Counted from the first letter of the stretch, positions 12,161-60,532 are shown. The stretch is DNA of 64,000 bases from Psammoneis japonica (GCA_008632985.1 QPGO01000021.1:62001-126000), one strand, 5' to 3'. Numbers and translations: made by a program. The notes: a model not told the origin generated them from the sequence alone.

Positions 12161-13789
12161 ATGTAAAACCATAAAGATAGCTGAAAGAATAATCTCCTGC
12201 CACACTCGTGCCTCTCGCTAGCGCAACACGAAACTTTTTGTGAGAGTGGCTAGAGAAAAAAGGCCATTGCATTGTCATTCATTCAGACTCCAGTTGAAGA
12301 AGAAAAAGGAAAGGAGAGAGTCTGGAGGGCCAGTCAGTGGAGGTCAATCCATCCAGAAGCCTGTGGAGACCTGACGTCACCACACTCTCTCTCTCTGCTT
12401 TCTGCACCTGGCATGTCACAACAATGTCACCAATGACCTCCACATCAATGAACTTGAGGGTGCCCATTCCCACACCAGTGGTCAAGGTGGATGAGACAGT
12501 GGTTTGTTGATGAGTGCAAGTTGGGTCATGGGCTGGGAGAACCGGGGGTTGGGAAGAATTGCAAATCAATGTTTTGGTTGGAAAACCAAAACACAACAAT
12601 GCAAAACAAGCCAAACACTGTCTTTGTGTGTGGCACCAAATTGTTGACAATCTTGTTGGCTGGTGTGTTGTTTTGCTTTATTCTGACTTTTGCTCTCATT
12701 CAAACACAGGCAGATCTTGTGGAAACTCAAAAAAAGGATGAGAGTTCTTCTCAAAGGCTTCTCAGTGGGTGACCTTCATTTCTGAGCACAGCAGTCAGAA
12801 AAGGCACAAAATGTGGGGCATGCATGGCAAGAAGGAGCTTTGCTTGCCATTGCACTGGTGCATGGGGAGTCAAGTGTGGCTGTGACACCAGATGCACTCA
12901 GAGAAAACTGCTCTTGACTGGAGAAAAATCAATTGGCACAACATGTGGAGCAAGTGTGACCACTCTTGTTTGCTGTGCGGCATGCCCAGGAAATTCACAC
13001 AAGCATTCAAGAAGCTTCCAAGCATGGAGCAACAGCCTCCAAGTGCAGCTCATCAAGAGCTGTTTGGGCTCACATTTTTCTTTGTGCAGCAGCAATCAGA
13101 GCACACAGGGTCACAGCAATGAAAGGCAGCAACTTGCAAGTCACACACAACACAAAAAAGATCATGGCTGTGAAAGCAGCAAGTGCCAGCTCATGACAAC
13201 AGCAGGTGGGTTTTTGCTGCAGAGCACAAAGCACATGCCAGCTGTTCTTGCTGTTGTCACTCTTGCTGCCTAAATTGCCTGTGTTTTTGACTCTGTGCAA
13301 AGGCAACAACTCAGTTTTCAAAAGTGCACACCCAACTGGCACAACACAGGTTTAGAGTGAAGAGTGCAGCCACTGTGATCTGTGAGGAGTTTGGGGGTGC
13401 ATGCAGCAGCACACCTGCTGTGCAGTTGTGTGAGAGGCATTTGCCAGCATCTGCAGCTTGCTTGGTTGCTGTTGTTGGCTTTGTTTTGTTCAGGTCTTTT
13501 CACCAGCCAGCTGATTTTGAAAATTGGGCTGCAGTTCACACACAAGCAAACTGTCAAAGAAGAGTTTTTTCAATGGTTGCTTGTGGCATCAACCAAAAAT
13601 GATGCATCAACAAAGCAGCAAAGTTGGGCCAAAAAGCACTCTGCCTTTGTGTCCAGCATTGAAAGCCCAGCTGCTGCAGCAATGTGCACAATTCTGTGCC
13701 CACACTTTTTGACAAGTCCAAGAGTGTGCCACCTGCTGCACAGGTGCAAATGACTTGAATCAAGCTGTGATTTGTGATTTCTCTTCTTC

Positions 13790-15600
13790 AGAAGGAAAGC
13801 ACACTCATGGCTGACAGCTTCCCCCATGGTCCATCAGCAGATGTGTGAAATCCTGCTTTTCCCAGCAGCTCAACAGCTGTCTTCCAACTCACCTCCTGCC
13901 ATGCACCAAATTTGCCTTTGATGCTTTGGTTGAAGCCATGCCATGGCACGGTGCTCCTGAGCAAAGGGGAGCAAGGTTGTGCTCTTTTTGTTGGTGACCA
14001 TTTCTTGGCTTTTTCCCTGAAGTGCACAGAGGCATGATGTGCCAACAGGAGGCAGCTGTAAAAACCCATCATCACTTCTTTGTTGCACACAGCACAGGTC
14101 CAATCAATTAAAACAAAAAGCTTCTTCATCTTTGTGCAGAGCACAATGCCAGCCAGATGTGCTGGTTCAAGGTGGAACATGTTTTGGTGGCAACCAAAGT
14201 CTGGCACAGCTTCAATGTTCTTCCACACACATGCTGTGCAATTTTCTTCTTGCTTGATTGAAAATGAGTCAGACAGGAGGGTGTTTGAAGCCAGGGTGCC
14301 CCTTGGTGAAATCAAGAGGGCAGGGTCATCTGTGCCACCACTTTTTGGATTTCACAAACAAGTTTCTTCTTTCCATCAAGGTGTGGGTGAACTTTGGCCA
14401 AGTGTTCAAGGTGAGGAGCACACATGCCTTGTGTTTGATGTGTCACATCTCACCAACACAGGATGCTTTGGTGCAGCAGTTGGAATCATTGCTGACATTG
14501 TGAACCACACCATGGGCCCCGGCTCCAATCATTGTGCTGACAAACCATTTTTTCCTCCTGTCAAATGACTGCAATGAAGGCCTTTTTGATGCTTGGAAGA
14601 AAGCAGGTTTCACCACCTTCACACCCAAAGTTCCAATGTTTGTCAGCTGGAGCTTTCGTCAATTCCCCACACTGCCAAGTTCAAATGTTTTGCCTCAGCA
14701 TGCTGACAATGCACCTCCTCCATCAGAAGCATTTTGGCTTTGTGTGGGTGTGGGAATGCCCAGTGCCTGATCTCAAAGTCAATTTTTCAATGGGTGTTTG
14801 TGAGATGAACAACACTTGTGTGTTTGTGTTCTCAATGAATGTCTTCTCTTCCATGTTCTTGGCAAGCTTTCTTTTCAATGCTGTCACCCATTGGAACAAG
14901 TGCCAGCAGCACTCTGAGAATGGCACACACTGTTGGTGGGACTGAGCCTCTTTCCTGATCCTTGTCATTCGGAAACATGAAAGATGCCGCCACTTCAGAC
15001 TCACCTCCTTGCCAGGACAGAACCCCACCAGCCACCTCTTTCATGCCAGCTTTGCAATCTTCTGATGTTGATTTTGAGTTGTTGCAAGTCAGTGGCTTTT
15101 GAGTTTCAGCTTTGCAAATTGACTGATTCCAAAACCCAGTGTGACTTGCCCCAAGTCCTCACTGGGATCAGTGTCACCTTTGACTTTCCTCTCAACTGCA
15201 TCAAAACACACCATCTGTTCTTTGCATGGGCTTGGAATTGTGGCTCCTTGTTCCACAAATTCCTTGACTTCTGAGGCTGCAAAAAACCTCCTTGCATTTT
15301 GTTCACCAAGTGACAAAGGTCAAGTGCTTGCTGAGATGTTTTTCTCATCTTTTCAAGATTTTCTGTCAAGTGCTTTGCTCAATCCCTTGTCAGCCACTTG
15401 ACTGCAACCAAGGACTTTTTTGAAAACCCAACTGCCAGCAGATTTTGTGGGCAGCTTCTGACAACAAGCCAAAGCAGGGTCCATTTTGACCAACACAGGT
15501 CTGGTTCTGTCATGTTGACATCAGTTGTGGTTTCTTGTTGTTTCAGGTTTGATGCCAGCATTGGTGCCATTTGCAACTTTCTTTCTTCAAATGTTGCTTT
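13790..15600 (-). pseudogene. Degenerate protein kinase-like gene
   Basis: IGAGAHGVVH (G-loop, expected GxGAYGVVY) at ~14500-14530 is followed by CCTKAS and HIKHKACVL (subdomain II/III-like), with VLIDWTCA (subdomain VII-like) further on. Interrupted by stops and frameshifts. Confidence 0.5.
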
Positions 15601-15965
15601 TCACATCAGCAGCTGTTCTCTCAAGACCCTCACATGCACAGAAAGGAGCTGATTTTTTTTTCTGACCCTGGGCTCTCTTTCCAACAATTGTCAGTGCCTT
15701 TTAAAGCAATTGGAAAGTGAGAGGAAAGGAAGTGTCTCATAGTTTGTCTGTGCAATTTGGTGAGGACAATGGGCAGAACAACACTTTGGTCATTGCTCTT
15801 TTCACATGTGTCTGGGGATTGTTTTTGCCAGGGAAGGGTGCCCAGCCAGCCATTCTCTGGCACATTTTCCTGTTTTCATTTTGTGGTTCATGCACCTTGT
15901 CATGAGCTGCTTCACACTGACAAGCATTGCAACAAAAAGTGACAGATGGCTTGTGCCATTGTTGG

Positions 15966-16173
15966 CATCCAGGTGTGGGCCATGGCGGTTGGTGTCATTG
16001 TCCATTGTCACAGTGCATCAAGATTGCTTGTGGGCAACCAAGCTGTTTCAGGGTTCTTAAATCACATCCAGGTGCGGGCCGTGGCGGCAGGTGTCATTGT
16101 CCATTGTTGCGGTGCATCAAGCACAAGGGGAAGATTGCTTGTGGGCAACCAAGCTGTTTCAGGGTTCTTAAAT
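15966..16173. repeat. Tandem duplication of ~100 bp
   Basis: CATCCAGGTG...GGGTTCTTAAAT occurs at 15966-16062 and 16065-16173. Confidence 0.9.
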
Positions 16174-17899
16174 TGCCAAGAATGATCACAAAATTGATTG
16201 CAGTTGATCACAAGTTCCCAGCACAAATGGTGATTGCAACAGGCATTTTTGCCACACATGGTCATGATTGCAATTGTTTGTGATCAGACTGCTTTCAAAG
16301 CACATGTCATTGTCATGATGGGCTCCATTTTGCTTCACCTGTGGTCTGCAGTTTGCCTGCTGTCTTGCCCGGGTGGTGCTCCTGCATGAAGAGTGGCCCT
16401 GCAAAGTGCGCCCCTGCCAGGGAGGCATCAACATGGCTGTGATTTGATTGCAGAGTTGGTGCAATCACTTGCCATTGTGATGAGGCAATTGTGCATTCAT
16501 GGTGATGCAATGTCTTGTTGTAAACTGACCATGACTCAGAACTTTGTTGTGAGTCTCATTTTCATTCACAAGTGTTCAGTCATGAGCAACAGGACAACCC
16601 CTGCTCATCACCCAACTCTGCTTTGCTCTCCATTGTGAGTGTCTGCACAACAACCATTGCACAGGCACTTTGCACACCCTGCCTTGGGGTGCATGCAAGT
16701 GTGCATGAAGAACAGTCGGTGCATGCCTCACAATGAAGAGTGGTCCATGACAGCAAATCTGGCTCCACTTCCAGAAGATGACCTCATGATGTCAAGTGGG
16801 CATTTCTGAGATCTCTCAAGTTGGGAGTGGGTGGGCACTGCTTGTGGGGACATGCATGTGGCACAGTCAATGGCGCCAGCCAGAAATTGATGAGGCAAAG
16901 CTTGCTTTTGTTGGCCCCTGACCCCCAGCCCAAGGCCAAAATGCAAGGCAGCAATTCTCAGCTGTGACAAGCTTGGAGGCTCAAGCCCGGGGTCTTGACC
17001 AAGTGCTCTTTAAGAAAACAACATGCCTGGTGATTGTCTTGCTCATGCACTGGTCCTTCCAGCAGTGGCAGCTGAAGGGGTCATGCTCTTTGTTGTTTGC
17101 AAACTCACCTCATTGACCTCTTAGGTCCAGCAGAGGCTTTTTTGCTGCCAAGCTGCTCTGGTTTCTTCAGATCATCTTGAAAATGACAACTCTGATTCTG
17201 AAGTGCATTTCCTTGGAAGACATGAGTCAAGAGACGCTTGAGGTGCTTTTCAATGGTTCCTTCTTGTTTTCCAGACTCGAGGCTCATTGATTTGGTCTCT
17301 AAATTGATTCCAGCAGAACTGGTGTGATTGATTCTTGCTCATGGAAGAATTTACAAAGGCGCGCCAGTTGAAACTTTCATTTTCCACATTTTTGGTGCCT
17401 TCTGTGGTGTGTGTGCACAATGCACTGTGCTCAAAGAACAGTTGCAAAGGAAAGCAGAATGAAGTGCAAAATGTGGAAATTGTGAGATCAAATGCTCTGT
17501 GATTTTTGGCTTCTCTGAATGAGTTCTCAATGGGCCAAAGCTTCTGCACTGCTTCTGCAGACAAAAGGCCTTTTGGAGAATGCAATTGTGAGACAACAGA
17601 TTGTCTGGACATGATTGCTGTTGACACGGAAGATGTCAACATCGTCAATTGATTGCATTTGCAATTTTTGACTTCCGATCAACTCTGTGTGATCGTTCTG
17701 TCCTTTGTGTGCATCCACGACTGTGGTGCGATTGACACACAAATGACATGTGATCACAGACATGCATGTGACAGTCGCACACTGCACCCGGTCAAATGCA
17801 CAGCGCCTGCCCCGCGACTGACCCAACCCACCCACAAGTTTGAAATGGCCATTGTCAAGCAACGCTTCTTGCCCCAAACTGACCCACTCAAGGGAAGCT

Positions 17900-19860
17900 G
17901 ATGCTTCAAGTCCATGACTGAAAAGAAGCATGACTTTCATTTGACATTTTCACAATGTGGGCTCCAGCCAAGTTGCGCCACCGACCAAGGTTTGAAATGT
18001 GTGCAAAAGCAAACAAAGCAAACTCAAGAGCACACAACGAGTCAAAACAAAAGCCCAGAATCACCATGGCAACACGAGTTCTGGTCCCCTTCTCACACAG
18101 CAACCATTGCTTTGACTGCACTCATGCTGACAATGACAGCAGTCATTTCAAAATCAAGCATGGAGCACCACTTCTGAGTGCTGCTGCCATGGCAATGGCA
18201 AAGGAAAAGACAGTCGAGGCAGCTGAAAAGTTGGGGCTGACAATGTCCAACAAGACAGATTACATTGCCAGCCCACACAGTGGCAAACACGCTCCACGAG
18301 ATTCATGGTCAGTGTGGCAAACTCCCCAGAATCATTGCGCTTGCTGCATCCATCTTCCAGCACCAGAGGGCCGAGATTCAAGGGCTGCAATGCACACTCG
18401 GGTCATCCAAAGCTTTGCTGCAAAGGAAGTCCTGTGCACTCTGAGGTGTGGAACAATTTTTGCCCGTAAAATGAGAAGGACGGGGTGAAGTGCAAGAGCC
18501 ATGGCTGCAAACAATTCTTGCCTGAGGATGCATGCCTGCTCTGAAACCACCTCCTCTCAAGCAACACAGCACAGGGCCTCCAGTTGTTCATGACAATGCT
18601 CGCTGCCACCTGCCTCTTCTTCCATCAAGATGAGTTCAGCAAGACAGAGACATCCAATTTCCTCACAACTCTGACATTTTGACGGCAATTGCCCACTTTG
18701 TCATTTGTGGATTTATCTCCATGTGAGAGTAGCACAAAGGGTGGGTGTCTGTTTCCAAGTGAAAAAGAGCTGGCCAACATGCCAGAGGACGGGGTGAGCA
18801 AAACCAAGATTGAACATTGGAAAGTGATGGATGCTCTCTAGAAAATGTTTCGCACAGTGTTGAACAAGCCCAATGTCAAGCTTGGAACACACAGCTTTTG
18901 CAAGATGGCTTGCCTTTTCTGTGCATGGGCTGACACAACAATGGCAGATGTCATGAAGAGTGCTTGCCACAAGACCTTGGCGCAAGCAGAAAAATGCCGC
19001 ATGGATGCGTTGCCGCTGAAGGACATCGGCGCTGTTCATGATGATCCTGTGGAGTGTGTCCCTTCAAAGTGGAAGTGTGTCCTGCAAGAAAGCGAAGGCA
19101 ACATTGAGTCAGATGAACGCCCCTGCAGTTCCATGCCAAAAATTGATCGGCCAACTCACCTGTGATTTCATTTTTCGAAAGTCAATGACATCTCCAAATC
19201 ATCCAGGCGCAATGGACACATTGCTTTTTTGGTTGATCAAGCAATGAAGTGGTGCAGGGCTGGAGACTCCAATGCCATGCTGGAAGATGTTCTCTTGACA
19301 CTGCCAATCAAACAAGCCTCTCAAGTGCGGCAAGCCTGGAAAATGAAACTGCTCAATGAAATTGCAAGTGTGAGCGAGTGCATTGTTGCACCTGCAGCTG
19401 CCAGTGTGCTCACTGGTGACAGCTTGCTTGTCAAATCAAAGTCATTGAACAAAAAAAGAGAGGATCTGATGGCAATGACCTTGAAGACCGCCACAAGCTG
19501 AAGAAGAGCAAAATGGAGATGGCAGAAAAGCTGGACATTGTTGTCAAGATTTGGGAGCAGCACCATGAGCAAGGCCAGCCATCAGTGACAGAGGGAGCCC
19601 AAAAATTCATCCAGCAGCAGGCTCCACCAATTGTTGGTTGCTTCCAAAACCACTGTAACTCTGACGCGGAACGGTTCTGCCACAAGTGGAAAACACTCCA
19701 ACACACCAAGTTCCCTTGCAAGGGAAAGGCCAATGAACCCTGTGCCGGATCGTCTGGGGATTGGGAAACTGCACATGCAGTGAGCACGACAGGTGATAAA
19801 TGTGAAGTGCTTTGCATGCACAATTTGTCGTGCACATTACTTGCTTCTCTTTTGCCGATG
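17900..19860 (+). mobile_element. Tyrosine-recombinase transposon remnant (Crypton-like)
   Basis: ORF 18845-19165 reads GTHSFCKMACLF...VMKSACHKTLAQAEKCR. This reverts by single CG>TG or TA>TG changes to GTHSFRKTAYLF...SARHKT...EKYR, the HxxR, H and catalytic Y motifs of tyrosine recombinases. No RT is visible nearby. Boundaries are approximate. Confidence 0.65.
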
Positions 19861-20287: not shown

Positions 20288-21262
20288 ATGGGGGACTCGA
20301 TAGAAAGAGCCAAACTCCGAAATTATGTAATCCAAAACGCTCTTGGATGCAAATACCAAAGCCGGCCAGAGGTCGAGACAAGCTATGTCGAACCAACTTT
20401 GTTTGGACAGGCACATGAGGTCTATCAACTCAAGACGACAAATAACAAAATCTATCTGGGACCGCTATCTTCGGCCAGTGAAGAAGCGTTGGATGCCCTA
20501 GAAAAATCAAACATGGTGGCCATTTGCAACTGTACAGCTCGAAGCCCAAGATTTCACCCCGACATATTCAAGTACTGCCAGGTCAACGTTCACGACAACA
20601 GTGCAGCTGATATTCTTCGGTATTTGGAGGGAGCGGCACTCTTTATACATTCTATGCTTTCGAAAGGATCTGTATTAGTGCACTGTGAATACGGAGTCTC
20701 CCGATCTGCGACGGTAGTGATCGCCTACCTCATAAGACATCAGGGCATGACTCGTGATGAAGCCTATGTCTTGGTCAAGAGCCGACGGCCCAAGATCAAT
20801 CCGAATCAAGGCTTCTGGGATCAGCTCGCTACCTATGAGCAAACGGTTAAAGAACTACGGGCAAACAAATCAACTATGGATCCTGGTGTAAAGGAGAGCG
20901 AACTGGATCATCGCACATGGATTGAAATGACTCAAGCATTACACGCCACATGTTACAACATTGAAGGCGTTCTTGCTTCTCACCAATGCTGGAAACCCCT
21001 CGCTGCTATCAGCACAAGCCGAGAAAAGTTATATAGTTTTCTTTTTGCCTGTCTGGACTATGTGTGGGGTCGTGGGCTGAGAGATGTCGATCTGGAGTGG
21101 TTCGACTATGTGCTGAAGCAATTTCCACCAGAATCAAATGCAGAGGTACAAGCGCTACTGCATAGTCTCATTGAAGATCCCAAGTCCGAGTTTCGAGATG
21201 CTTGGACTGGGGAGATTCGCCAATCACAAATCGAAAAGATTTCAAAAGCTGTGCTGAAATAA
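20288..21262 (+). CDS. Dual-specificity protein phosphatase
   Basis: Motifs IYLG, VLVHCEYGVSRSATVVIAYL (HCx5R) and VKSRRPKINPNQGFWDQL. Confidence 0.92.
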   Translation: MGDSIERAKLRNYVIQNALGCKYQSRPEVETSYVEPTLFGQAHEVYQLKTTNNKIYLGPLSSASEEALDALEKSNMVAICNCTARSPRFHPDIFKYCQVNVHDNSAADILRYLEGAALFIHSMLSKGSVLVHCEYGVSRSATVVIAYLIRHQGMTRDEAYVLVKSRRPKINPNQGFWDQLATYEQTVKELRANKSTMDPGVKESELDHRTWIEMTQALHATCYNIEGVLASHQCWKPLAAISTSREKLYSFLFACLDYVWGRGLRDVDLEWFDYVLKQFPPESNAEVQALLHSLIEDPKSEFRDAWTGEIRQSQIEKISKAVLK

Positions 21263-21338
21263 TTTCGAAATTCGATAGAGAATTTGATAGTTTGATAAAT
21301 AATCATAGACATGATATTATCACTATTTTACCCTCCTT

Positions 21339-22214
21339 TCAAACAATATCTGCAAAGTCAATTGGTGCCGACTTTTGCGTGTTGGCAGCATCCACGGTTG
21401 AGCTGCTTTCACGCGTTCTATCACCCGCTCTAATGGGTTCACATCGGCGCCAAGACTGATCATAGCAAGCATGTGGACCGATTGGATGAGTGCATTTTCG
21501 AACATGACGAACGTTTTCAGCCTGTTCAAGCTCGAGTATCAAGTTTTTCAGGCGGTCAAATATAGGTACCCTGTCGGATTCTGTTTCGTATCCTTGATAT
21601 GTGGGAACATAGATCGCATTCGAATAGTTCATAATACATTGCTGTGGAGTGTTTTCCACAATCAAACAACGTTCCATTAGAAAATGCTCTTTCGGCAGGT
21701 CCTTGTCGTTCCAAACCTTGCGAAGTTCTTTGACTTTGCGACATGGGCAATGCCAGCTGTATTGAGCACAGTAGCATCGGGTACAAGAATGACTGTAGGG
21801 GCCACACCACAGGCAGCCGCCATCTGAGACTTGATGGCTATATTTTTGCGGGATTTCCTTTCTTGCTCGTAGTTTGGATCCTCCCCATGCAAAGGAAAAC
21901 GTCTTGTGACACTCTTGGTGATGACCATGAGATCCATCTTCCCAACAATTCTCGTGTTCTCCACAGACTCGTTGGCAAATTCGATAGGCATTGGTCATGG
22001 CCCAGCCATCATATGTAGCTGTCCATAAGGCGAGTTTGTGTCCTCGTTCCAAGAGCCACTGTAAGAATTCCACTGTTCCTGGTCTCAGTCGACATTGAAT
22101 TAGATGCTCACTCTCTCCTGCTAACGTTCCATCAATGTCAAACACAATTCCAAGCTTGTGAGATTGTGGCGGCGATGAGGGGTTGTCTGTTGTTGGCGTT
22201 GATAATTCCTCCAT
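21339..22214 (-). CDS. HAD-superfamily FCP1/NIF-like phosphatase with Cys/His-rich inserts
   Basis: VFDIDGTL (DxDxT), LRPGTVEFLQWL, LWTAT and LIVENTP motifs in an intact 291-aa ORF. Confidence 0.8.
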   Translation of the reverse strand: MEELSTPTTDNPSSPPQSHKLGIVFDIDGTLAGESEHLIQCRLRPGTVEFLQWLLERGHKLALWTATYDGWAMTNAYRICQRVCGEHENCWEDGSHGHHQECHKTFSFAWGGSKLRARKEIPQKYSHQVSDGGCLWCGPYSHSCTRCYCAQYSWHCPCRKVKELRKVWNDKDLPKEHFLMERCLIVENTPQQCIMNYSNAIYVPTYQGYETESDRVPIFDRLKNLILELEQAENVRHVRKCTHPIGPHACYDQSWRRCEPIRAGDRTRESSSTVDAANTQKSAPIDFADIV

Positions 22215-23916
22215 GATTGTTTTGATGCGTGCTTTGAATGATGTTTTGGTTGTATATTGGAAATTCGAAATTCTCAGACGTGCACCTTCAATCTTGCTTC
22301 AATCAATCATCACGCAGAGATTTGAATCGACTGGTTGGACCAAAAATTCAAACGAAGAACAGAGTTCTGATCTTTTTTTCCGACGTCACGTGCTTCTCCT
22401 TCTGCCTTTTGTTGCAACGATCAGAAGTGGAACAATCACGATGACTTCAGCCTTCAGCTGGTCATCAAGCACAACTGCACAAGCAGGTGAACTCAAGACC
22501 AAAAGATCAGCTGCAGACTGCAGAGCACTCTTCAAAAAGAACGGAGAATCAGCAAGAGAGAGAATTGAAAATGAGTCGAGCATCAGCTTCTCTTCTGCTG
22601 CAATCATGTTGCTGCTTCTTGCTCATTCTACCCAATGGACATGTGTTTGTGCCGAGAACCAGTCGAAATTGCAGTTTCTCTCCAGCTGCATCACCAACTG
22701 TGTCAGCGATGATTCACAGTGTTCAGCGCTCTTTTACAATCCATTGGAGTTTGAATCGGCAGAAGCCAAGGAGGCACACATGGAATTGGCACAAGAACCC
22801 CAAAAGTCTCACTGTGTCAATGAACCTGGAATTGGACCCATGCAGCATGGTGTGTTGTCCAGTTTACCTCTGTGGATGGAAGATTGTGTGAGTTGTTCGA
22901 AATGCCAGACTTGCAAAGTTGGTTGTCAAATCTTTGTTAAGACTTGTCGGTCGTCACTGTGTTTTGGTCATTTTCAACTTTATTTTCCTGACAGCATTTT
23001 GTTTGACCCACCAAAACACAATGCAGATGGAACTTCCTGGACTGCAGCATGTCATGGAGGTTGAAGATCCCCAACTGGTGAATCTGGCATTGAAGATTGT
23101 GGCTGGGCCTCGCCCTTGGCACCGTGGGCACATCAACAGAAAAGACAGTGATTGTGATGAAAATTTAGAGACCACAGATTCGCCATTGGAATGCCAACAC
23201 AAACATCAGATCATCCACTGGACAAAGAAAGCGGATCTTTGGAGATTGGAGTTCAAGCACTGGGACGCTTCAGCGTGGTTGAAGGCTTGTCAGCATTGGC
23301 AGGGCTGGGCAAGCAGCCATGGATGCTGGGGAAGTGCTGGCACTGTTGGTGCTGAGCCTGACATCACAAGAGATGGGTGACAGGTTTGACAGATGCTGCA
23401 GATCCTTTCCATTGCCAGCACATTTTGCCTGTGTTGTCTGCATGGTGGAGAGAACAAGGGGGGTTCTTTCTCAGGCATCAAAGCACTCATCACCACCAGC
23501 GTGGGGTTGGATGATGCTGCCCATGAGCTCCAAGTCAGCATTTGTGGTTGGGCCATGTGGGGGTTGGTGCAGGTGGCAGGCAGGATGATGAAAGTCATTC
23601 AATCGCAGCAGAGTGTGTGCCAGGAGTGTGGCAGACTCACAAGTCCTGCAAGGTTTGTCAGAGATTTTCTTGCAGCTTGGGAACACAAGCCCATGGGAGA
23701 TGCAGCAGGCAGCCTGAAACTCCAAGTGAGTGGAGCTCTCCTGTTGGCAGCTTTTGAAACCCATCGTCGATGGCACATTTTCTTGTGCAGGGGAAGTCCT
23801 GGTGTGCAACAGTTTGGTGCTGGGGGGTGTCTGCAGTCTGGCCCAAGTCAAGACTTCCTTCTGCATTTGAGTGTGCTGTGAGTGCACAAAGCTGCCAGTC
23901 AAGTGTGCTCTGCATC

Positions 23917-24161
23917 TGACAGAAAATGAAGATGACTGGGTGGAAGAAAACAATGGCTCCTTGCTGCTGTCTAAACAGCAGATGAGTCTCCGTGCAGAGA
24001 CCGTCACAGGAGCCAAAAGACTGGTGTCGTGACATCGGCACTGCTGTCATCATTCTTGTGAGCCATGTGGCTCAAAAGCAAACTACATCGCATGACGCAC
24101 GTGGAACTAAGAGCACACACAATCATGTGTGACAAACTAAAATCTTGTTCAAATCCTGTCA
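23917..24161 (-). repeat. 3' LTR of copia element
   Basis: Gapless match to 30892-31136; adjacent to the PPT. Confidence 0.95.
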
Positions 24162-24268
24162 CTCCCCAGTTTGCTTGAGGGGTCAACAGCGATGGATTCG
24201 AAGTCGGATTGGTTGAAAGCCTTGGGGTCGAAGTTCCAAAACATTAGAGGACAAAGGAGGTTCCAGAC

Positions 24269-27200
24269 TCAGTGGCCCCAATGCTTGCTGAGGATGTCAG
24301 CCGGGTTGCGAGAGCCTTTGATAAAATGAAACTCGAGGAATCCGGAGGCAATCGCCTCACGCACACGATGGAACGAGAGGGTGGTGTGTCGCTTGTGCAA
24401 CTTGGAGTGCGGGATGGTGGCACTGTCCACAACCGACTTGTTGTCCCCAAACATGCAACATGTTTCACGAATGGGGATGCCAAGGTGACGCAAAGTGATG
24501 CGCAGATCAATGATCTGCTCAACACATGTCCTTGCGGCAACAAACTCTGATCCATGCGTGGCAGTCTCGACTGTTGCTTGTTTCTCAGAGAACCAATCAG
24601 CCAAGAAACTTGTTGAGGAAATGGAGGATGCCAGTGACAGAGCACCCAGTGAGCATGCAATGGAACAAGTTCACATCAACGTGGTGTGTGGTGGTGACGA
24701 ACTTGCCAAGTGGCTCGGGCGCATCTTGTGGGAGCAGCTCTTCTACCTCCCCACACACAGATTGAGCCCAGTCATGCACAGGCTTGGGGAGGTCCAAACA
24801 GTCGGGCTCCTCAGCGCGCACTCGGAGGGCACCATGATGCATCTTGGAAAGGAATCCACAGATGCATTTGGCACGGTCCAGGTGGCCTTGGCAGGGCACT
24901 GCACGGAAGCTGGACAGGGACATGACAGCCGCAGTGATGTCAATTCGACCCAGAGATGCGGCCCATTGCAGGGATCCAATCAAGGATTGGAATTGGTGGA
25001 TGCCATCCGGTTTGAGTAACTCGGAAGTGTCGAGCTCAGGGTGGTCACCCTTGTCAAGGGGTGAAAGCACATCAGTGCACGGCTTCTCCCCAAAGAGGCA
25101 CGCGCAGTTGTCAACCATGCGCTCAATGTGCTTGCGGGGAGCAAGGCACAGGGTGCCATCTGGGTCACGGGTGAAGTTGCAGCCAAGATGGAACTCCAAT
25201 GGTCCAGTGCCCTTGAGCTTGAACTTGCACTTCTCCGTGAGGGTGTCTGCAAAAGCCTGGGGGTCCTTCATGGCAAAGGCCAGGTCGTCCACATGCACTG
25301 CCACGCGTTTGCAGTGGTCACCATTCCTGCACAGCCAGATGTCGGGTTTGGCCTTGCATGGAAAGAAGCCTTCGGCACACAAGCAATCGGCAAAGCGTTC
25401 ATGCCATCTGAGTCCGGAGCTGCGGAGTCCACACAAAGCCTTGTGGATGACAAGGATGTGTCCTTCCAGGTCACCAAACTCGGGGCCTGCTGCCATGTGC
25501 AGTTTCTCCTTGGTCACAGCTTCAAGGCAGGTGCTCCCAATGTCAGTGGCCCAGGTCTCTAGTTTGTTGAGTTCGGCCAGGAAGATCATCATTCGCAGGC
25601 CACAAAGAGACACTGCTCCAGAATGGACACTGTCAACGGGCACGTCTCTGAGGTGTCCATTGGCAACAAGCCTTGCTTTGTGCCGTCCGTCATGTTTGAC
25701 GTCGTAGACGAGGTGCACCCGGATCTTCTTGTGTCCTGATGGAGCACTGGAATCCTTGTGGTGTCCGCAGTCATGGAAGACCTCGCACTCATCAAGCTGA
25801 GTCATCTCGAGGTCTGTTGTGTCTCCCCACTTGCAGTTGCGCTCATCAAGGGCCATGGCATGCTTGCAGTCCTGTGGCACTTCACACCCGCACTTGCATT
25901 GTGGCGTGGTGCGAAAGGAGCGTAACTTGGCTTGGTTGGCCATGCAGAGTGGCTTCTTCTGGCAAAGGGCCATCTTGCGAAAACGTCTCCATCCTTCGGT
26001 TTCTAGAAGGCCGTGCTCATGCATGTAGATGGCACAGGTTGCAGGGTCGTCCTTGGCAATGATGACAAGGGGTTCGGACGTGATCTCCCCATTCTCCCAT
26101 TCAAGCATGACGTTGCAGCTTGAGCCTTTCCAAGATGGATCATGGGGTTGCAATGGTCCTTCGTGTGACACAATGCATTGGAACTTCCAGAGGGTGGTGT
26201 CCTCGTCTTCTTGCTCAATGTGGTGCATGATGTCATTGCAGGCTGGGACTTCCTTGCATTCGTCATTGTTGATGGAGCAAATGAACTTGACCAGTTCAGG
26301 GTTGCCTCCGATTTTCCAGTCGTGGTCCTCAACGGCGTTGACAATGCGGGCTCTGTGGCGTTGGCCATCCTCTTGTGGCTTCATGAGGAAGGTGCATCCA
26401 ATGACATCCTTGGGGTCAAAGACTGGCATTTTGGGCATTCTGATCGCCTCCCCATCTGGTGAATCTGGCAAATCCTCGTAGTCGTGCCGGGATTTAATGA
26501 CAGGGTCAGCAGATTTCTTGTCAGGAGGATCAAGACACAGGTTTGGAGCAGACGGATCATGGGCAGAGCGCATGTTGGAATGGCAGAGAATCTTCTGAGT
26601 GTCGTCAGAAAGAATCTTGAACATCATTTGGTGACCAACGTGTTTGGCGATGCCAACGAAGCGACCACGCAATTCACGGGATTCAGACGGCCAGTTGGAA
26701 TCATCCAGGTGGCAGCACACGGGTTCCCACCATTGAAAGCGGAGGAGTGGGCTGATGTTGGGAGTGGAGCTGGACAGCACCTCGGTGGGGGTGCGCCAGT
26801 GGAGCTTGGCTGATGCCATGTGGTTGAGCACAAAGCACACGTGCATCAGGGCGAGCAGCCAGGTGTAAGCCGGGGACCCAAAGCGATCCATGATGGTGTT
26901 GGCCATGGTCTTCACAGTTTGGTGGCAGTGTTCAGCAAAATTCTGATGCTGGTGGTGAGGCTCGCTTTGCCAACTAGAGATGAAGAGGGTGCGGAGGATG
27001 CCAAGAACCTTGTTGCTGATTTCAACCTGAGCACGGTCGCTGATGAGCTTGGATGGGGCACCTCAGTTGCGAATGTTGTCCTCGAGGGTGTTGACAAATT
27101 CTTTGTCAGTTTTGGTGCCATGCACATCAGTGACGAGAGATTCCATGCCGACAAAGAGCTGGGCACTGGCGCAACCAGAGTCAACAGCAGGGGTGTTGGA

Positions 27201-28577
27201 GCAGACCGTGTCGGTGGCAACGGGCTCATTGCGTCGGTGGACATTGAGAGCCGGGTTGGGTGATTTGTGCGCCTTTTTCAGGTGCGTGCTGGCTGGCATG
27301 CGGGTGCACTGCGTCGTGCAATCAAAAGTGCGGCGGACAGTGTCCTTTGGGAGAAAGCCAAAGCAGGGGTGGAGGGACTCAAAGTTGGGATCCTTGGGAT
27401 TGAGTTGACGCGTTCCAGCCCCAGGTGGGACTCCGTGTGACATTGGGCCTGCAGAATTCTACGTACGAGCTCCGCAGTGCGAGAATTTAATTGATGGATG
27501 TGTTTGTCTTCAACATCAAATAAACGGCCAAGTTTGTGGTGCAATTGTGCCTCTTGCCACTCGACGTCTTTGCAAATGCGCCTGCCCTGCACAATTCTTA
27601 AGACATTGTAGAATCGCGCTGTAACAAAAAATGTCAAAAGTTGTTGGATGGATCGCTCAACAAGTGTGCCGTAAAAATGACACAAAATGTCGAAAAAATC
27701 ACGTGGAAATCTGCGTGCGCGACATGCGACATGATTCAAAAAACTGTCGATGTCACAGTTCAGTGGTGCGAGGTCCCACCCAGACCTGGAACACGTCAGT
27801 TCGCGCTCATGGCATTCACAGAAGAAATCAGATGTTGGGAGCAGGTGATCATCAAGGATGGAGTCTGCAAGCACGGCATTGTTGACGACATGGCGGTGAC
27901 GACAGTCACCAAACTCATCAAAGAGGTTGGTGGTCAAGTCGTCTTGGAGCTCAGACACGGCATCATGCCACTTTTCATCATCGGTGAACTGGCGGTCAAG
28001 GACAGATGGGTCCCATGTGTCATCACCAGTGAGAATGACATGCGGCAGAGTGTCCCATTCAGCATCGGTGTGCAGTCGCATGGCAACGCACGGGAGGCTG
28101 GCTTCAATGTTGATGGGAATGATGCATCCGTCAACAGTGGTGATGCACTGCAGACCATTGGGAACCTTGATGGACCGATCGTTGACATCGTGTTTTGCAC
28201 CGCTCGAGCTGGCCGCAAGAGTGCATCGTCTTCCCCTTTCCAGTGCAGGTGCACTGGTGAAGGATGGCAATGGCAGGGCCACATTGCGTGTGGATGACAC
28301 CACCGGCAGTGACAACAGGAATGTTGACCAGTTGATGATCGTCGACACCTTGGACACAAACATCATCACCAGCGACACCACCGTTTGCACCACGATCCAT
28401 GAGAGCACCTTTGCGAGTTGACTTGTGGGTCAAGGCAGAGCAGACGATGTTGTGGTTGTTGACGCGATGGCATTTGTGGCCGTTGATCTCAATGTCAATG
28501 TCAATGGGCTTCGCATCGGAGTGGACGGAAGGTGCGGATCCGGGTGGTTTCTCACCAGAACAGGCGGAAGGAGGCAT
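24269..28577 (-). pseudogene. copia pol (protease, integrase, RT, RNase H), frameshifted and MITE-interrupted
   Basis: Motifs LMDRGANGG, EPVATDTV, HKARLVA, KALCGLRSSG, VHVDD, VETATHGSEF, MFGDNKSV and NPADILSK. Confidence 0.92.
27407..27797. mobile_element. 391-bp MITE inserted in copia pol (4-bp TSD AGTT)
   Basis: Imperfect TIRs GACG(C/T)GTTCCAG....GGTGGGAC; AGTT at 27403-27406 and 27798-27801. Excising the element restores the pol frame (...HERELNPKDP...). Confidence 0.88.
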
Positions 28578-28894
28578 TCAGGTGCCAGGAGACATTGCAA
28601 GTTGCCTGGTGGCAGAGGCTTGCGCCTGGTGAGATGAGCCAGAATGGGGTTGCCATTGGCTGCATCGGCTGTGGCGTCAGATTGTGCGGAGGCTGACACA
28701 AGATTGTGAGTGTTGGCGGACAAGTTGACATCGCCATCGCTGCCAATGCGGAGGTCGTGCATGTTGACCGCCATCGAGTCGTGGCAGTTGGCAAGAATGA
28801 TGGCCTTGGTGGATTGGGGCAAGGTGTCCCAAATGCACTGATGGTCCGGCAGGATGCGACGCCATTGTTCCTTGGTGAGGGAATTGCCGCGAGT

Positions 28895-30079
28895 TCACGC
28901 AGCATGAGCTTGGATGATGTCAACATCACCGTCGATGTCGAAGGATGCATCATCATCAGGGTCGTCAGGGACCAGGTCATGTTCGTAGATGGCACGGCGT
29001 GGAGCGCGAGGAGCCGTCTTGGCGGTGAACGTGCTGTCGTGCTGTGCTGCAGCAGAAAGCAAAAGTCCACAGTGCTCCTCGCAAGAGAGTCCCTTGCCAT
29101 TCTGCATGTGGAGCTGATCGGCCTGATTCTTCACCGAACAGAGTTCCTCGACAGGATGTGCGGCGTTCTCAAGCATGACATGTTTCTGGCCAGCAGAAAA
29201 ATGGTCTGCACCTGGGACAAGAGCTTCATGCTTGCGGAGCTGGTCCTGCCAGTGGAGCATGAAGGCATGAGTGGAACCTTTCCAGGTGCCATCACCAAGG
29301 CGAGCAGTGGCAAGGTACGTGAGAAGGGTCGAGGACTCCAGGGATGCGCGAGTGGAAGCAAGGGCATGCTTGGAAAGGTCACGACACACCGCTTGAGCAT
29401 CAGAGGAGCTGACGTGTTGACGAACAAGAGCCTTGCCTTTGTCATTCTGCAAGATCCGTTCGAGTGCGGCGAACATGTGCTTCTGTTGTTCAGCAAACAA
29501 GGCCTTGTCCTCAGCTGTGGAGGGCTTGTGCGTCGGGTCAAGAATGCGTGCGACATCTTGGGAGCGGGCCTGTGCAATGATGGAGGTGTGCCACGTGTGC
29601 CACTGTTTGTCGGACTTGAGGAGTGCGAAGGTGAGTGGGTCACGTTTGATGCCTTGTTTAAAGTCATGCATGGGATCACGTGGTTTGGGTGGCAACAAGC
29701 CAGGAGTGGGAGCAGATGGTGCTTTGCCCATGGAGAGGGACGCCACATGCTCAGGACTAAGACGACAGTTGGTGAACTCCTCTTGTGTGAACAATTGAGG
29801 GTCATTGCTGACATCCGCGCTGCCACGCGCTTTTGCCATGTACCGGCTAATCAACGCAGCTGTCTGTGCTTTGTAACCACGTGGCAAAGGCATTTGATTG
29901 GTTCCGTTGTTGCACACAAGGGCATCCAATTGCATCGGAGTAAAAGTGACAAGGTCCTGATGCAAATCGATTCCATCAATGTTGAGAGCAGAGCACAATG
30001 GACTGTCTGCGGCTTGATTCAGAACAGTGCCTAGAATGTGCTCGAGGCCATCGATTTGTTGTTGCCTGGTGAGAACCAT
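28895..30079 (-). pseudogene. copia gag
   Basis: The 394-aa ORF contains FKQGIKRD...W..W, typical of diatom copia gag, and lies upstream of the protease. Confidence 0.8.
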
Positions 30080-30891
30080 GTTGCAACCAGGTGGATGTCG
30101 GAACTGGCTGGAGTCGGAGGGTGAGCTTGAGGTAACTTGAAACTTGACTTGAATCTTGACTTGATGTCTTGGACCACCTCAAGAGTCAGAAGCCGCCGGG
30201 CTGTGATGTCCCGTTCGCAGTTGAGTGCTGAGCTTCCTGTCTGGTCTGCAGAGTTGTGCCGGCATGTCCGAACCTGCAGCTGGCAACGCTTTTGGTTGCT
30301 TGAGAGCGGAGCAACGGGTTAAAAACCCCTGCTGACAAGCCAACTGGAGGTGGACAAGACCTCCGAACCATTCTCATTTTATGTCGGTTGGATGACCTGA
30401 TCAGGCCGGCCAAATTTGGCACTGTGGAGGGACGAACAAATGCAGGAAATGCACCCTTGCCCCAACGTGGGCTGTGGTCATGAATTGCTTCCTCTCACAG
30501 TTGTCCTCATGGACCTTGCAGGACTGTAGAAGACCAGCAATCTGGTGTGGATACGAGGCGGTAGACTTGGCGTGCGCAGAGCAGAGCCAGAGTCAGGGAT
30601 TTATGTCATGTGCGCGTGAACGCGTGCGGATGCATTGGTGGGATCCGCTGTGAGGAATCCGGAATCTCAGATGTCTGAGAATTCAGGAATTCCTGGCCAA
30701 ACAAATGTCTGTTGAACAAATGTGTCCAACGATGGGAGGTGTCGGATAAATCCAAACATGCAGATTTAATCCAGCATCCAGCAGTGAAGAAGGCAGACAC
30801 ATGCTTCCACCGCCAACAGTGCGCGTCGTCGAAAATTTCTCGATGACAATGATGAACACTCAGTGGACAACAAAGAGCAAGACTGTCAATC

Positions 30892-31136
30892 TGACAGAAA
30901 ATGAAGATGACTGGGTGGAAGAAAACAACAACTCCTCACTGCTGTCTAAATGGCAGATGAGTCTCCGTGCAGAGACTGTTGCAGGAGCCGAAAGACTGGT
31001 GTCGTGATGTTGGTGCCACTGTTGTCATTCTTGTGAGCCATGTGGCTCAAAAGCAAACTGCATCGCGCGACGAGCGTGGAACTAAGAGCACACACAATCA
31101 TGTGTGACAAACCAAAATCTTGTTCAAATCCTGTCA
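30892..31136 (-). repeat. 5' LTR of copia element
   Basis: Gapless match to 23917-24161; followed by the TSD GCATC. Confidence 0.95.
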
Positions 31137-32568
31137 GCATCACTGCCAGACAGTCAGTCTTTGGCACTCCACCAAGTTTGCCCAGATTGGAGGCAATGTG
31201 TCACTTCATCACACAACTTGCACTTGCGTGAGCTTGGTGTGGTTGCCCCAATTGCCTGTTTGCCTTTTTCATCATCTGGGTTGCTGTTGCTGTTTGGAGG
31301 TCATCTTCTGGACAACACCGCTGTCACTGGGTGGAGTTGCTGTGGGTTCTGCAGACCTTGTCCCAAGTGTCCTGGGATGTTGCATTCCACCTTGTGGTCA
31401 CAAAAAGAAGCAAGTTGGTGCCTCGTCAAGTGCAGACTGCAGCTCAGTGCTGGCTGCCTGTTGCACTGCACACCACTCACAAGAAATCATGAAGAGGTGT
31501 GCTGCTGGCTCTGGCTTTTTGGCCACTGTGGCTGCTCCACACGGTCATCAAGATTGCACCTCTTTGGGGTGTGGAGCTTGTGCAAGAAGCAGCATTGCGA
31601 ACGCACAGGGCGCACACAAAGCACTGTGAGTTTGTGCCTCTTGTGAGCCCCCACAGCACTTGCTCTTGCAGGTGTGAAGAAGGCATCCCAGAGTGGCCTT
31701 GAATGACCCAAGAGCACTTTTGGCAGGTGGGTGCTAAAGTGCCCTGGGGTGCCAACTGGAGGGAGACATCATCAAATTCCACCAGGGTGAGCTGCCCCCC
31801 AGTGAGGTCCCCTGTAACCTTGCAGGTGCTGTGACCCCAAAAGGCTGAGTGAGCTGGGCCCACTGCTGCAGCTGGGCAGGTGGGGGGGCACCTGGCACAG
31901 CACTTGCACCTGCCTTCATCTGCTGCATTTTGACCACAGCAGTGTGCAGTTCTGGCAATTGGCAAGTCACAACTTGACACCACTGCCACTTGCCCTTGTG
32001 GGGGCCCTGGGCCATTTTGCAGTTGTCTTTGCACCAGAACAAAAAAAATCCTGTGTTGGCTTGGCACACCCCCCTTGGTGCAGATCCCTTGCTGCTGCAG
32101 TGTGACAACTTCAATGTCTTTCCATGACTGGAGAGCTGCTTTGCTTGTGCTTTTCTGGCAGCAGGCAGAGAGGTGGCAGCGCCTGCTCCAGCTCCTCCTG
32201 GCACGCAGTCCTCAGTGGCGCTGGCAGCATGGGTGCTTTTGGGAGGTGGCAGGGGCATGCTTGTGCCATGGGTTCCAGCAGCAAGTTTTGCCCTGGCAGC
32301 ATCCAAGCACCAGCACCAGCCAGTGCAGCACTGAGATGAAGTGATGTGCTCCAGCCCCAGGTGGAACTCCACATGACACAGGCCCAAAGAATTCTGCACA
32401 CAAGCTGTGGACACATGAATGATCACCAACAAAAAAGAGGCAATTTTGTGGGTGCAACTCTCCTCTGCTCTTGAAGCACTTCATTTCTGGTTTGCCTAGG
32501 TGCATTTTTCAAACATTGAAAAATGTGCCCAGCCCATTTCAGCTTTCACAAATGAAGAAAATAAAAGC

Positions 32569-32813
32569 TTTTGGCTTTGCAAAACAGGGAGCATGAGGAA
32601 ACAATGTTGCAGACAAAGATCACATGCAGAAACACATGCGCGTGACACGCAGCGCCATCCAAAAACCTCTTGTGTCACAGCACAGTGGTGCCTTTTGGCT
32701 TTGCAAAACAGGGAGCATCAGGAAACAAAGCAGCAAACACAAAGATCACATGCAGAAACACAAGCGCATGACATGCAGTGCTGTCTAAAAACCTCTCGTG
32801 TCACAGCACAGTG
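32569..32813. repeat. Tandem duplication of ~120 bp
   Basis: TTTTGGCTTTGCAAAACAGGGAGCAT...GTGTCACAGCACAGTG occurs twice. Confidence 0.85.
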
Positions 32814-32957
32814 ACGCAAGGTCCTGCCTGGAGCCAGAGCACGTCAGGCATGCTTGTTTCCCCCTGGCCTGCTGCTGGCTGCTGCTGAGCATTCACACTG
32901 TGCAGGCAGCTTGTGAGAAGCAGCGGCCGTTGCTCTGGAGCTCGTGCAAGAGAGCGC

Positions 32958-33522
32958 TCAAATTGTTTGGGAGGTGAGAGTGACCTCAACGGTTGGACAG
33001 GGTGGGTCATTTTGATGACTCATCTGCTGCAGGTTGAGAGAGACTTCTCGTCAAATTGCGCGAGCTGGGTCATCGCACGTGCAAGCAACAAGCAAGCAAA
33101 ATCTCATGGCAAAAAGAAAAGTTGCTGCGAAACTCTGGCGAAACTGCGAACTGCGGCGAGAAATGTCATCCGCGAACTGCGAAGACGACTGATCAAAGCG
33201 ACATGTTTTCGTGCAAACTGCACTCAAAGCGCAAGCAAAAGAACAAAAATAAATCTACTCTAGAGTAGAGAGTGGCATTCAAATTGTTTGGGAGGTGAGA
33301 GTGACACCACCACGGTTGGACCATGGGTCACGATAGGTGGTCATCGCACGAGCGCGCAAGAACTACCAACTTGAAACAACTTGAAACTCGCGGGAAAAAA
33401 GAAGCTGCGAAATAATAACCGCGAACTGCTGCCAAATAACGGCGAACTGCAAAGACGACACTGATCAAAGCGACTTGTTTTCGTGCACACTGCACTCAAA
33501 GCAAAAGAACATGACAAATAAA
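32958..33522. repeat. Diverged tandem duplication (~250-300 bp unit) straddling the right edge of island 2
   Basis: TCAAATTGTTTGGGAGGTGAGAGTGAC at 32958 and 33279; both copies share GGTCATCGCACG and CTGATCAAAGCGAC...CTGCACTCAAAGC. Confidence 0.8.
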
Positions 33523-51315: not shown

Positions 51316-51838
51316 TCAAGGGGGTCGTCGTTGGATCGGCTGCATTTGAATGCACGGACGACACCCTTCACTGTACTTGCGATCTGCTACGTATGCTGAT
51401 GCAATGCTTACGTCACAATGATGTCGTGGATCTAGAAGATGTGGTATCCGCGTTTCAATTTCAATTTTGGTCTTGTTTACGCGCAAGCGACGATCTTCTG
51501 TCCAATTTTGGAGAACAACAATTCGATTCGATCTTCTTTCCAATTTTGGAGAACAACACCAAACACTACTTTAGTCATAAAGTTCGCCGGATGCGTATTG
51601 AGACGTCTTGCACTCACCGAACTCAACTCCGTGGGTTGCGCATTTCAGACTAGAAAGAATCCAAACTCCAAACTCACCTTTTCTCACCATTCAACATTCA
51701 AGCCAACTGCAAAGAATCGGAAGAGTAAGAGTGAACCGTTGAACAAACAGTATTCATTGACATCGGAGATAGATGTGTTTCTTACATCAACAACGTGTCG
51801 TTTGTTTTGAAGGAACCTTTAGTTTGCAAAAGAGGGCA

Positions 51839-58194: not shown

Positions 58195-58242
58195 GACAAT
58201 GATGAATCCGTCACACTGGGTGACCGCAAACCAGCAACAAAG

Positions 58243-60365: not shown

Positions 60366-60532
60366 GCCAAATGACCGACAACTCTCCGGAATCACAAAGC
60401 AAAAATGAGTTCTGCACAATTCAATGCCTCGTGGGACAAGTTCCAAAGTGTGCTCACTGAAAGTAGAGTAAATTAGCCCAACAAACCGACGACTCTCCAG
60501 AATCACGAAACAAAAATGAGTTCTGCACAATT
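60313..60532. repeat. Tandem duplication of ~110 bp covering the helicase stop codon
   Basis: ATGCCTCGTGGGACAAGTTCCAAA...GAGTTCTGCACAATT occurs twice. Confidence 0.88.

Follow-up and report, generated by a model that had tools for sequence, protein, structure and literature searches.

Repeat-induced point mutation (RIP), known from Neurospora and further ascomycetes, inactivates chromosomal transposons through dinucleotide-biased changes that are all transitions, and it leaves skewed islands behind. RIP changes C:G to T:A, creates TpA, and hits both members of a duplication; RIPCAL (PMC2621366) belongs to the literature on it. TpA itself is the target in Bigelowiella natans, wherein integrated giant-virus and virophage DNA undergoes hypermutation (Mettrop et al., 10.64898/2026.01.13.699255), and, in the portions of that preprint covered, the rate at which TpA there becomes TpG or CpA is put at about 6e-7 per site and generation. 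Diatom methylation is reported to be predominantly CpG (PMC5124317), and diatom transposons to be CpG-methylated (PMC5124317; PMC6604790). A 64,000-nucleotide stretch of the diatom Psammoneis japonica (GCA_008632985.1 QPGO01000021.1:62001-126000; hereafter the window, with positions counted from its first letter) holds a Ty1/Copia retrotransposon whose two long terminal repeats (LTRs) differ almost exclusively at dinucleotides of this kind. It is quite probable that two transition processes, a fast loss of TpA and a slower decay of CpG, hit the island around this element after its insertion, and that TA was the source of most of the sites at which one LTR has TG and the other CA.

The retrotransposon lies on the minus strand, is dead, and sits inside a TA-poor island. 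Its features are the following.

23912-23916, no strand: left copy of the target-site duplication GCATC, the same 5-mer lying directly outside both element ends
23917-24161, minus strand: 3' LTR in element orientation, 245 bp, TG...CA termini (repeat search and pairwise alignment)
24162-24175, minus strand: putative polypurine-tract-like run AAACTGGGGAG (sense strand, read directly), adjoining the 3' LTR
24162-29572, minus strand: internal stretch matching the polyproteins of homologues in alternating frames (tblastn, 120 homologues)
24597-26915, minus strand: open reading frame (ORF) of 772 amino acids (aa), the longest, with a Ty1/Copia reverse transcriptase (RVT_2, Pfam)
30892-31136, minus strand: 5' LTR in element orientation, 245 bp (repeat search and pairwise alignment)
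31137-31141, no strand: right copy of the target-site duplication GCATC, the same 5-mer as the left copy

Direct LTRs with TG...CA termini (TGACAG...CTGTCA, the inverted ends being TGACAG and CTGTCA) and a 5-bp target-site duplication are as found in Copia elements, and the reverse transcriptase is of the Copia type, RVT_2 (PF07727) being recognized in the 772-aa ORF at E=1.5e-19 with 71 bits against a cut-off of 31.6. On the sense strand the purine run GGGGAG borders the 3' LTR. The nearest pol relatives among 5.8 billion protein clusters searched are at most 61% identical, and every one carries PF07727. The catalytic YVDD motif of RVT_2 reads HVDD; since pol matches its homologues in alternating frames, it is also broken by frameshifts, which tblastn of the 120 homologues places near sense coordinates 2940-2970, 3286-3709 and ~6530. 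No gag, protease or integrase is found by Pfam in the upstream ORFs, even at E<=0.1, and there is no match to rve in the upstream segments of the element. Of three long homologues, two show rve matches N-terminal to RVT_2, but only below threshold (E=0.003 and 0.0097), and the N-terminal parts of long homologues align upstream of the reverse transcriptase in the element. From such sub-threshold matches the Copia gene order, with integrase before reverse transcriptase, is no more than likely. Within the window tblastn with the 120 homologues finds no other copy (E<=1e-4), and ordinary blastn of the element against the rest of the window returns a single 71-bp match.

An LTR pair is a natural experiment, in that the differences between the two LTRs postdate integration and were made in the chromosome. 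The LTRs at 23917-24161 and 30892-31136, 245 bp each, align without a gap and are flanked at both ends by GCATC; an earlier note on this DNA had recorded an intact target-site duplication and no indels. That note had further put the differences at about 26 with one transversion, had placed them almost only at TA/CG-derived dinucleotides, and had held that they arose on the chromosome and on both strands; a full count bears it out, class by class. The differences number exactly 26, with 25 transitions and only 1 transversion. Eight are the reciprocal TG/CA swaps that the note had described (LTR positions 38, 46, 60, 89, 117, 123, 126 and 132); its several CG versus TG/CA sites prove to be five, three CG/TG and two CG/CA (positions 86, 99, 120, 176 and 177); and there is one TA versus TG, at position 169, and one TA versus CA, at position 222. 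An extra G/A difference lies at position 40, and CA stands against AG at positions 182-183, where the sole transversion is found. Dinucleotides shared by both copies are CG/CG at 5 sites, TA/TA at 2, TG/TG at 23 and CA/CA at 18. If a target is defined as any LTR site belonging to a TA, CG, TG or CA dinucleotide in either copy, 25 of the 26 differences fall within 128 target sites and 1 within the other 117 (Fisher exact p=4e-7). At the swap sites one LTR has 3 TG and 5 CA and the other 5 TG and 3 CA; both outcomes thus occur in each LTR, and both strands were therefore affected.

Run X1 has 14697 contigs that match the element with a likeness of at least 80%, with a summed contig depth of 91000-186000 over 27236-27783 and of about 100000-129000 over the LTR bins, as against 39-75 in unique flanks. 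The Copia family, or parts of the family, is extremely abundant in this organism. Such abundance, together with the clustering of the differences at LTR positions 38-61 and 86-133, would accord with an import of the differences, whether by gene conversion, through a recombinant of two elements, or in an assembly chimera of paralogues. The intact target-site duplication argues against a recombinant, however, and the pair shows no indels and only 1 difference outside TA, CG, TG and CA sites, whereas paralogues on the element show many transversions and indels. Moreover, imported differences would still carry the same TA/CG spectrum. Import is thus a very unlikely source of the differences. A run X1 contig of 3823 bases agrees with 23400-23942 with 0 differences, an agreement that may not be independent, since run X1 is possibly the assembly's own source.

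TG and CA can each be derived from CG, by C-to-T change, or from TA, by A-to-G change, and the coding sequence of the element itself was used to decide between the two. Two sets of columns served, set 1 comprising the 358 columns in which 80% or more of 60 homologues agree, and set 2 comprising 478 columns over the whole of pol, from 63 homologues of at least 1000 aa. In set 1 the codon is changed at 20 of 21 conserved Tyr columns (TGY 11, CAY 4, TGG 1, CGC 1, TTY 3), the one surviving TAC standing in a CTAC context; in set 2 it is changed at 21 of 22 (TGY 10, TGG 1, CAY 7, CGC 1, TTC 2), so that TGY, TGG or CAY occupies 18 of the 22. As a control, Cys and His were counted at 22 conserved Tyr columns: they occupy 15 of them in the element and no more than 1 in each of 60 homologues. 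Among 28 Arg columns of set 1, CGN is kept at 15, with AGR at 3, TGY at 9 and CAT at 1; the corresponding codons of set 2 are CGN 23, AGR 4, TGY 7 and CAY 3. The loss of TA in pol is therefore 17/18 to 19/20 once TTY codons are excluded, or about 95%, and that of CG, taken as CGN Arg codons become TGY or CAY, is 10/25 to 10/33, or about 30-40%. TA was lost about 7 times faster than CG in the element (ln 0.05 / ln 0.65). Throughout the codon table of set 1, about 22 changes fit TpA to TpG or CpA, including two of V to A (GCA) and two of I to M (ATG), about 22 fit CpG to TpG or CpA, including seven of E to K and D to N after C, and about 16 fit neither route. The TA and CG processes are both real, with similar counts of changes in this CpG-rich element.

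The paralogues point to both kinds of change. A majority was read from run X1 at 40 of 1337 variable places, chosen for support and not at random. The window has TG or CA where the majority of depth has the letter that makes TA at 24683 (97%), 27907 (100%) and 24586 (85%), and the paralogue majority has CG at 24319, 24644, 24673 and 25379. Conversely, the window retains CG at 24335, 24344, 24353 and 25307, where 57-86% of depth has a letter making CA or TG.

Two further, independent pairs of repeats, both inverted, lie elsewhere in the window, the outer one serving as a control.

48098-48247, plus strand: outer arm, outside the island, 19 TA kept
50167-50316, minus strand: partner arm, inside the island, 17 of 19 TA converted (12 to CA, 5 to TG), single CG kept
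48463-49020 and 49542-50099 (span 48463-50099), no strand: inner pair, 558-nt arms, both inside the island and both mutated

The 150-nt arms of the outer repeat differ at 24 positions, 22 of them transitions, and because the arm outside the island is unconverted the change is polarized as loss of TA. The same escape means that homology alone was not the trigger. Between the inner arms there are 63 differences, of which 49 are transitions, with 14 TG/CA swaps, 15 sites of CG versus TG/CA, 2 of TA versus TG/CA, 17 CG/CG and no TA/TA; 1.6-3.1 swaps would be predicted from CG. Both repeat pairs thus show the same spectrum as the LTR pair. The limits of the TA-poor domain here (~48601-51350) are not those of the inverted-repeat element (48098-50316): the left 250-500 bp of the element are untouched, and 1 kb of older island on the right is fully erased. 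These limits fit a spread of TA erasure from the older island to the right of the inverted repeat.

An alternative is that the changes precede integration and that the RNA or cDNA of the element was edited by an ADAR-like or APOBEC-like activity. ADARs prefer a 5' U or T for A-to-I editing, as cited in the preprint portions covered (10.64898/2026.01.13.699255), and a sense-strand bias was hinted at in codon set 1 (21:5). This bias came to only 18:10, not significant, in the larger set 2, and is not upheld. Editing of a precursor is contradicted for the LTR differences, since both LTRs are copied from one template and 26 differences between them could not arise in this way; it also leaves the presence of TG and CA outcomes in each LTR unaccounted for, and the inverted repeat at 48098-50316, which is not a retroelement, and the flanking island DNA are mutated as well. 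A contribution to changes shared by both LTRs could have been made, but as an explanation of the locus such editing is scarcely credible.

An account in which all changes come from ancestral CpG, by methylcytosine deamination or a CpG-directed, RIP-like process, with the TA sites as double hits, has some facts on its side. CG decay is real, as the 10 of 25-33 CGN Arg codons turned to TGY or CAY attest, five of the LTR differences are CG versus TG/CA, and the older flanks have an observed/expected ratio (O/E) for CG of only 0-0.3. Decay of CpG predicts a gain of TA, however, whereas the element is at a TA O/E of 0.11 and the islands are at 0.02-0.2; nor does it accommodate the 18 of 22 conserved Tyr (TAY) codons that are now TGY, TGG or CAY, or a repeat arm with 19 TA whose partner has 17 of them converted and its only CG intact. 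As regards the LTRs, given 5 CG/CG and 5 CG/x sites, the expected number of CG-derived swaps is 0.54 at q=0.30 and 1.05 at q=0.40; for the CG class over this range P(>=3 swaps) is 0.02-0.10, and P(8) is 7e-7 to 6e-5. Derivation of all the swaps from ancestral CG, which the earlier note had named as the outcome that would tell against it, thus fails, with 0.5-1.05 expected and 8 observed, and would need about 26 CG in 245 bp. A purely CpG origin can be given next to no credence. Rates measured elsewhere in the element and window suggest instead that about 7 of the 8 swaps come from TA and about 1 from CG. Some 7 TA-derived swaps imply about 18 ancestral TA in 245 bp, which is plausible because the unmutated repeat arm has 19 TA in 150 bp.

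Several points weigh against the account preferred here. On the LTR counts alone, with flat priors, P(>=8 swaps) is 0.014 for a homogeneous CG-only model and 0.035 for a homogeneous TA-only model, so that the TA model fits hardly better than the CG model; neither fits, because mutability varies from site to site. With q raised to its upper confidence limit of 0.61, the probability that all 8 swaps come from CG is 0.035. The ancestral letters at the 8 swap sites are not seen, none of the 40 places shown among the 1337 variable ones lying in an LTR, and all read data come from one sample, possibly the source of the assembly. In pol the CG-derived changes (about 22) equal the TA-derived ones (about 22), and the process is thus not one of TA only. 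Two TA/TA sites survive in the LTRs as against about 0.05 expected at p=0.95, from which it follows that mutability must vary between sites. Finally, no enzyme, modified base or ongoing mutation has been observed.

Variation in mutability is apparent from context. CTA is common to the 2 TA/TA sites, the 2 half-converted sites and the surviving Tyr codon, and the TA that survives in the islands is enriched in CTAA, TTAA and GTAA contexts and depleted in ATA and TAT. Classified by 5' neighbour on both strands, TA in islands over TA in genic stretches is 23/721 after A, 72/761 after G, 79/557 after C and 110/533 after T. ATA/TAT is thus the preferred target and TTA/TAA the poorest. The words 'context', 'flanking' and 'trinucleotide' have 0 occurrences in the portions covered of the B. 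natans preprint (10.64898/2026.01.13.699255), and no such preference was found there.

The loss of TA is a property of domains. The element has 45 TA in 7220 bp (O/E 0.11, versus 0.37 in the remaining window), and its CA and TG O/E are 1.4-1.7, rising to 2.0 in islands. In a 1-kb profile four islands have TA O/E of 0.02-0.2, and the genic stretches between them mostly 0.45-0.73; 142 TA remain in 30750 island bases, versus 1286 in 33250 genic bases. The islands, the flanks of the element and the host genes recognized by Pfam are as follows.

~12251-19750: TA-poor island
22251-33250: TA-poor island, containing the Copia element
48601-51350: TA-poor island
54501-64000: TA-poor island
22251-23911, no strand: older TA- and CG-poor island, left flank of the element, TA O/E 0-0.15, CG O/E 0.87 falling to 0.06
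31142-33250, no strand: older TA- and CG-poor island, right flank of the element, holding the fragment 32194-32847
10802-12160, 20288-22214, 37553-41090 and 46294-47421: host genes, Pfam-recognized

Island borders are abrupt at 250 bp: on crossing 12250, the counts drop to 1 TA and 1 CG, from 8 and 12 respectively. The Pfam-recognized host genes sit in stretches with TA O/E of 0.4-0.8, and for the neighbouring WD40-cyclophilin gene all organism-named homologues are from diatoms, with a best identity of 58%, as expected of a diatom that lacks closely related sequenced genomes. The CG O/E is 0.53-0.83 in the element as against 0-0.3 in its immediate flanks, from which it follows that a younger element landed in an older island. 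Within the right flank, the fragment 32194-32847 is related to element positions 26312-27799, the relationship being found in four pieces by purine/pyrimidine-reduced blastn and being to internal sequence, not LTR. One segment of it is 73% identical in four letters and 96% in purine/pyrimidine code, and its differences are therefore nearly all transitions; the element retains TA and CG where the older fragment has TG or CA.

These comparisons establish the spectrum of the change, its direction, its timing after integration, its action on both strands and its restriction to islands with sharp borders, and they establish that the LTRs, two copies 7 kb apart, were hit independently. The history that would accommodate them begins with insertion of a Ty1/Copia element, in minus orientation, into an older island of dead transposons in a diatom chromosome. 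A fast process would then have turned TpA into TpG or CpA (A:T to G:C, on either strand), removing about 95% of the TA of the element, and a slower one, expected from cytosine methylation of diatom transposons, would have turned CpG into TpG or CpA, removing about 30-40% of its CG. With each LTR mutated independently, a TA that became TG in one and CA in the other would appear as a reciprocal swap. Because one inverted-repeat arm escapes and the mutated domain is offset from the repeat element, the process appears to follow chromatin domain or position and not sequence homology.

At the two edges of the Copia island, 22251-22500 and 33001-33250, CG has a normal O/E (0.87 and 1.19) but TA is erased (2 and 0 per 250 bp); TA depletion thus extends some 250 bp beyond CG depletion at either end. 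Since these two intervals and 54501-64000 lost TA and kept CG, TA erasure does not seem to be simply tied to CpG decay; either it is much faster than CpG decay or its domain reaches slightly further. As to chemistry, the simplest option would be enzymatic deamination of adenine to hypoxanthine at TpA, and the B. natans authors, in the portions of their preprint covered, likewise propose adenine deamination at TpA (10.64898/2026.01.13.699255).

The same change of TA to TG or CA could be a passive by-product of silenced chromatin and not the work of a dedicated adenine deaminase or a defence, the candidates being a putative thymine modification at TpA, of the 5-hydroxymethyluracil type, which would pair wrongly with G; a TpA lesion left unrepaired; and an error-prone heterochromatin repair patch. 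At the palindromic TA, A-to-G and T-to-C are one event viewed from two strands, so that the base attacked cannot be read from the sequence; the TA-poor domains largely overlap domains that are CG-poor and presumably methylated; and the escape of a repeat arm outside the domain, while its homologous partner was mutated, fits a positional cause. For a passive bias, however, conversion of about 95%, near saturation, at about 700-fold over background (128 to 30000) would be extreme, and TA is erased in the three intervals in which CG is intact, which argues against simple coupling to CpG decay. A passive origin is accordingly judged rather unlikely, and a dedicated activity at TpA is preferred.

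The consequences for dating are considerable. The naive distance between the LTRs is p=0.106 (Kimura two-parameter distance, 0.119), and the distance at non-target sites is 0.0085, about 14-fold less, which agrees with the earlier expectation that LTR dating would be inflated. Per dinucleotide, TA changes some 700 times as fast as a background site, a ratio that is indirect and has a very wide interval (128 to 30000), the background being 1 difference in 117 non-target LTR sites. By way of illustration only, if the Phaeodactylum rate given in the portion of the source covered is used (4.77e-10 per site and generation; PMC6604790), the naive distance corresponds to about 1.2e8 generations and the non-target distance to about 9e6. 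A 2025 preprint dates diatom LTR elements by sequence identity with the same single constant rate (10.1101/2025.10.24.684338), and 'dinucleotide', 'hypermutat', 'deaminat' and 'RIP' have 0 occurrences in the portions of its text covered. For the present pair, constant-rate dating by identity would overstate age about 14-fold, and if the process is general in this diatom, transposon ages taken from LTR or consensus identity are inflated.

ORFs are affected as well. In the 7.5-kb stretch 23800-31300, 34 ORFs of at least 80 aa overlap on both strands, and an antisense ORF of 442 aa, without Pfam family, lies at 28706-30034; the dead element is ORF-rich on both strands because TAA and TAG have been lost. 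Were the process general, such loss would leave long ORFs in dead transposons that could be called as genes.

The other islands are of different aspects. The 9.5-kb block 54501-64000, which runs to the end of the window, has TA O/E of 0.01-0.17 and CG O/E of 0.6-0.96 over most of its length, with 0.13-0.28 in the last 2 kb. It carries long plus-strand ORFs of 318, 771 and 587 aa, the last of which encodes a RecQ-like superfamily 2 (SF2) helicase (Pfam DEAD and Helicase_C), the nearest solved structures being RecQ, RECQ5 and BLM at E=3e-9 and weaker. Its appearance is that of a large selfish element, or of a repeated helicase gene, from which TA was erased not long ago. The oldest-looking island is 12251-19750, in which 13-16 kb has TA O/E of 0.03, CG O/E of 0.02-0.07 and CA/TG of 1.6-2.1; tblastn finds no Copia pol homology there, and no protein family search was made in it. 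An 886-aa minus-strand ORF (721-3381) without Pfam family, in a stretch with a moderate TA O/E of 0.35-0.46, contains at 1707-3291 tandem repeats of about 111-123 bp and about 240 bp.

With respect to known systems, the likeness to RIP is in kind and the difference in direction. In both, transition-only, dinucleotide-biased change falls on chromosomal transposons and leaves a skewed island. RIP, however, runs in the opposite direction: here TpA is destroyed (O/E 0.11), the change is A:T to G:C, GC is raised, and stop codons are erased rather than created. RIP also mutates both copies of a duplication, whereas here only one of two 150-nt inverted-repeat arms has lost TA (17), the other having escaped with its 19 TA. 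Methylated-CpG decay accounts for the 5 CG versus TG/CA differences of the LTRs and for the Arg CGN losses, CG to TG/CA change being found in the transposon DNA, where methylation itself is presumed. It cannot explain the loss of TA, the change of Tyr to Cys or His, or most of the swaps, and it is about 7-fold slower.

The closest resemblance is to B. natans, again as described in the portions of the preprint covered. There, too, change is nearly exclusively A-to-G or T-to-C on TpA, giving TpG or CpA, and that spectrum is found here at 18 of 22 Tyr codons and at 17 of 19 TA of the control arm, with a CpG component in addition. It is limited to foreign or selfish DNA, in clusters of 1-kb windows that are poor in TpA and rich in CpA and TpG, and here it is confined to four low-TA islands with 250-bp borders, host genes being at normal composition. 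The rate in B. natans exceeds that of other genome regions by orders of magnitude, de novo mutation having been observed directly there, in a subset of lines, at about 1000-fold the background, and an indirect ratio of about 700 (128 to 30000) is obtained here; reverse-transcriptase and DDE domains are enriched among the TpA-poor genes of B. natans. The two differ in host, a rhizarian there and a diatom here, the covered preprint text having 0 occurrences of 'diatom' or 'stramenopile'. They differ in method, mutation-accumulation lines there and repeat pairs and codons here, and in degree, TpA in the viral region being at about half the genome level and here about 95% lost, near saturation. 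The targets here are retrotransposons and repeat islands, on which CpG decay is superimposed, and the covered portions of the preprint contain no LTR-pair analysis. What the present pair adds is the proof of post-integration, two-strand change, the partition of LTR differences between TA and CG, and the size of the dating error.

Full-text literature searches found no description of TpA-directed hypermutation in diatoms, and among the literature so found only the B. natans preprint, in its covered portions, describes this signature. If the process is general in this diatom, a signature so far printed for a single rhizarian alga is also present in one of the major groups of marine primary producers, which would make the responsible enzyme a worthwhile target. 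It is possible, though doubtful, that diatoms and chlorarachniophytes have in common an ancient defence of the chromosome, one that extends along with silent chromatin and alters the A or T of TpA on both strands at hundreds to thousands of times background. Such a shared defence, if it exists, would be the A:T-to-G:C mirror image of fungal RIP, erasing TAA and TAG stops, raising GC, and making dead transposons look ORF-rich and ancient.

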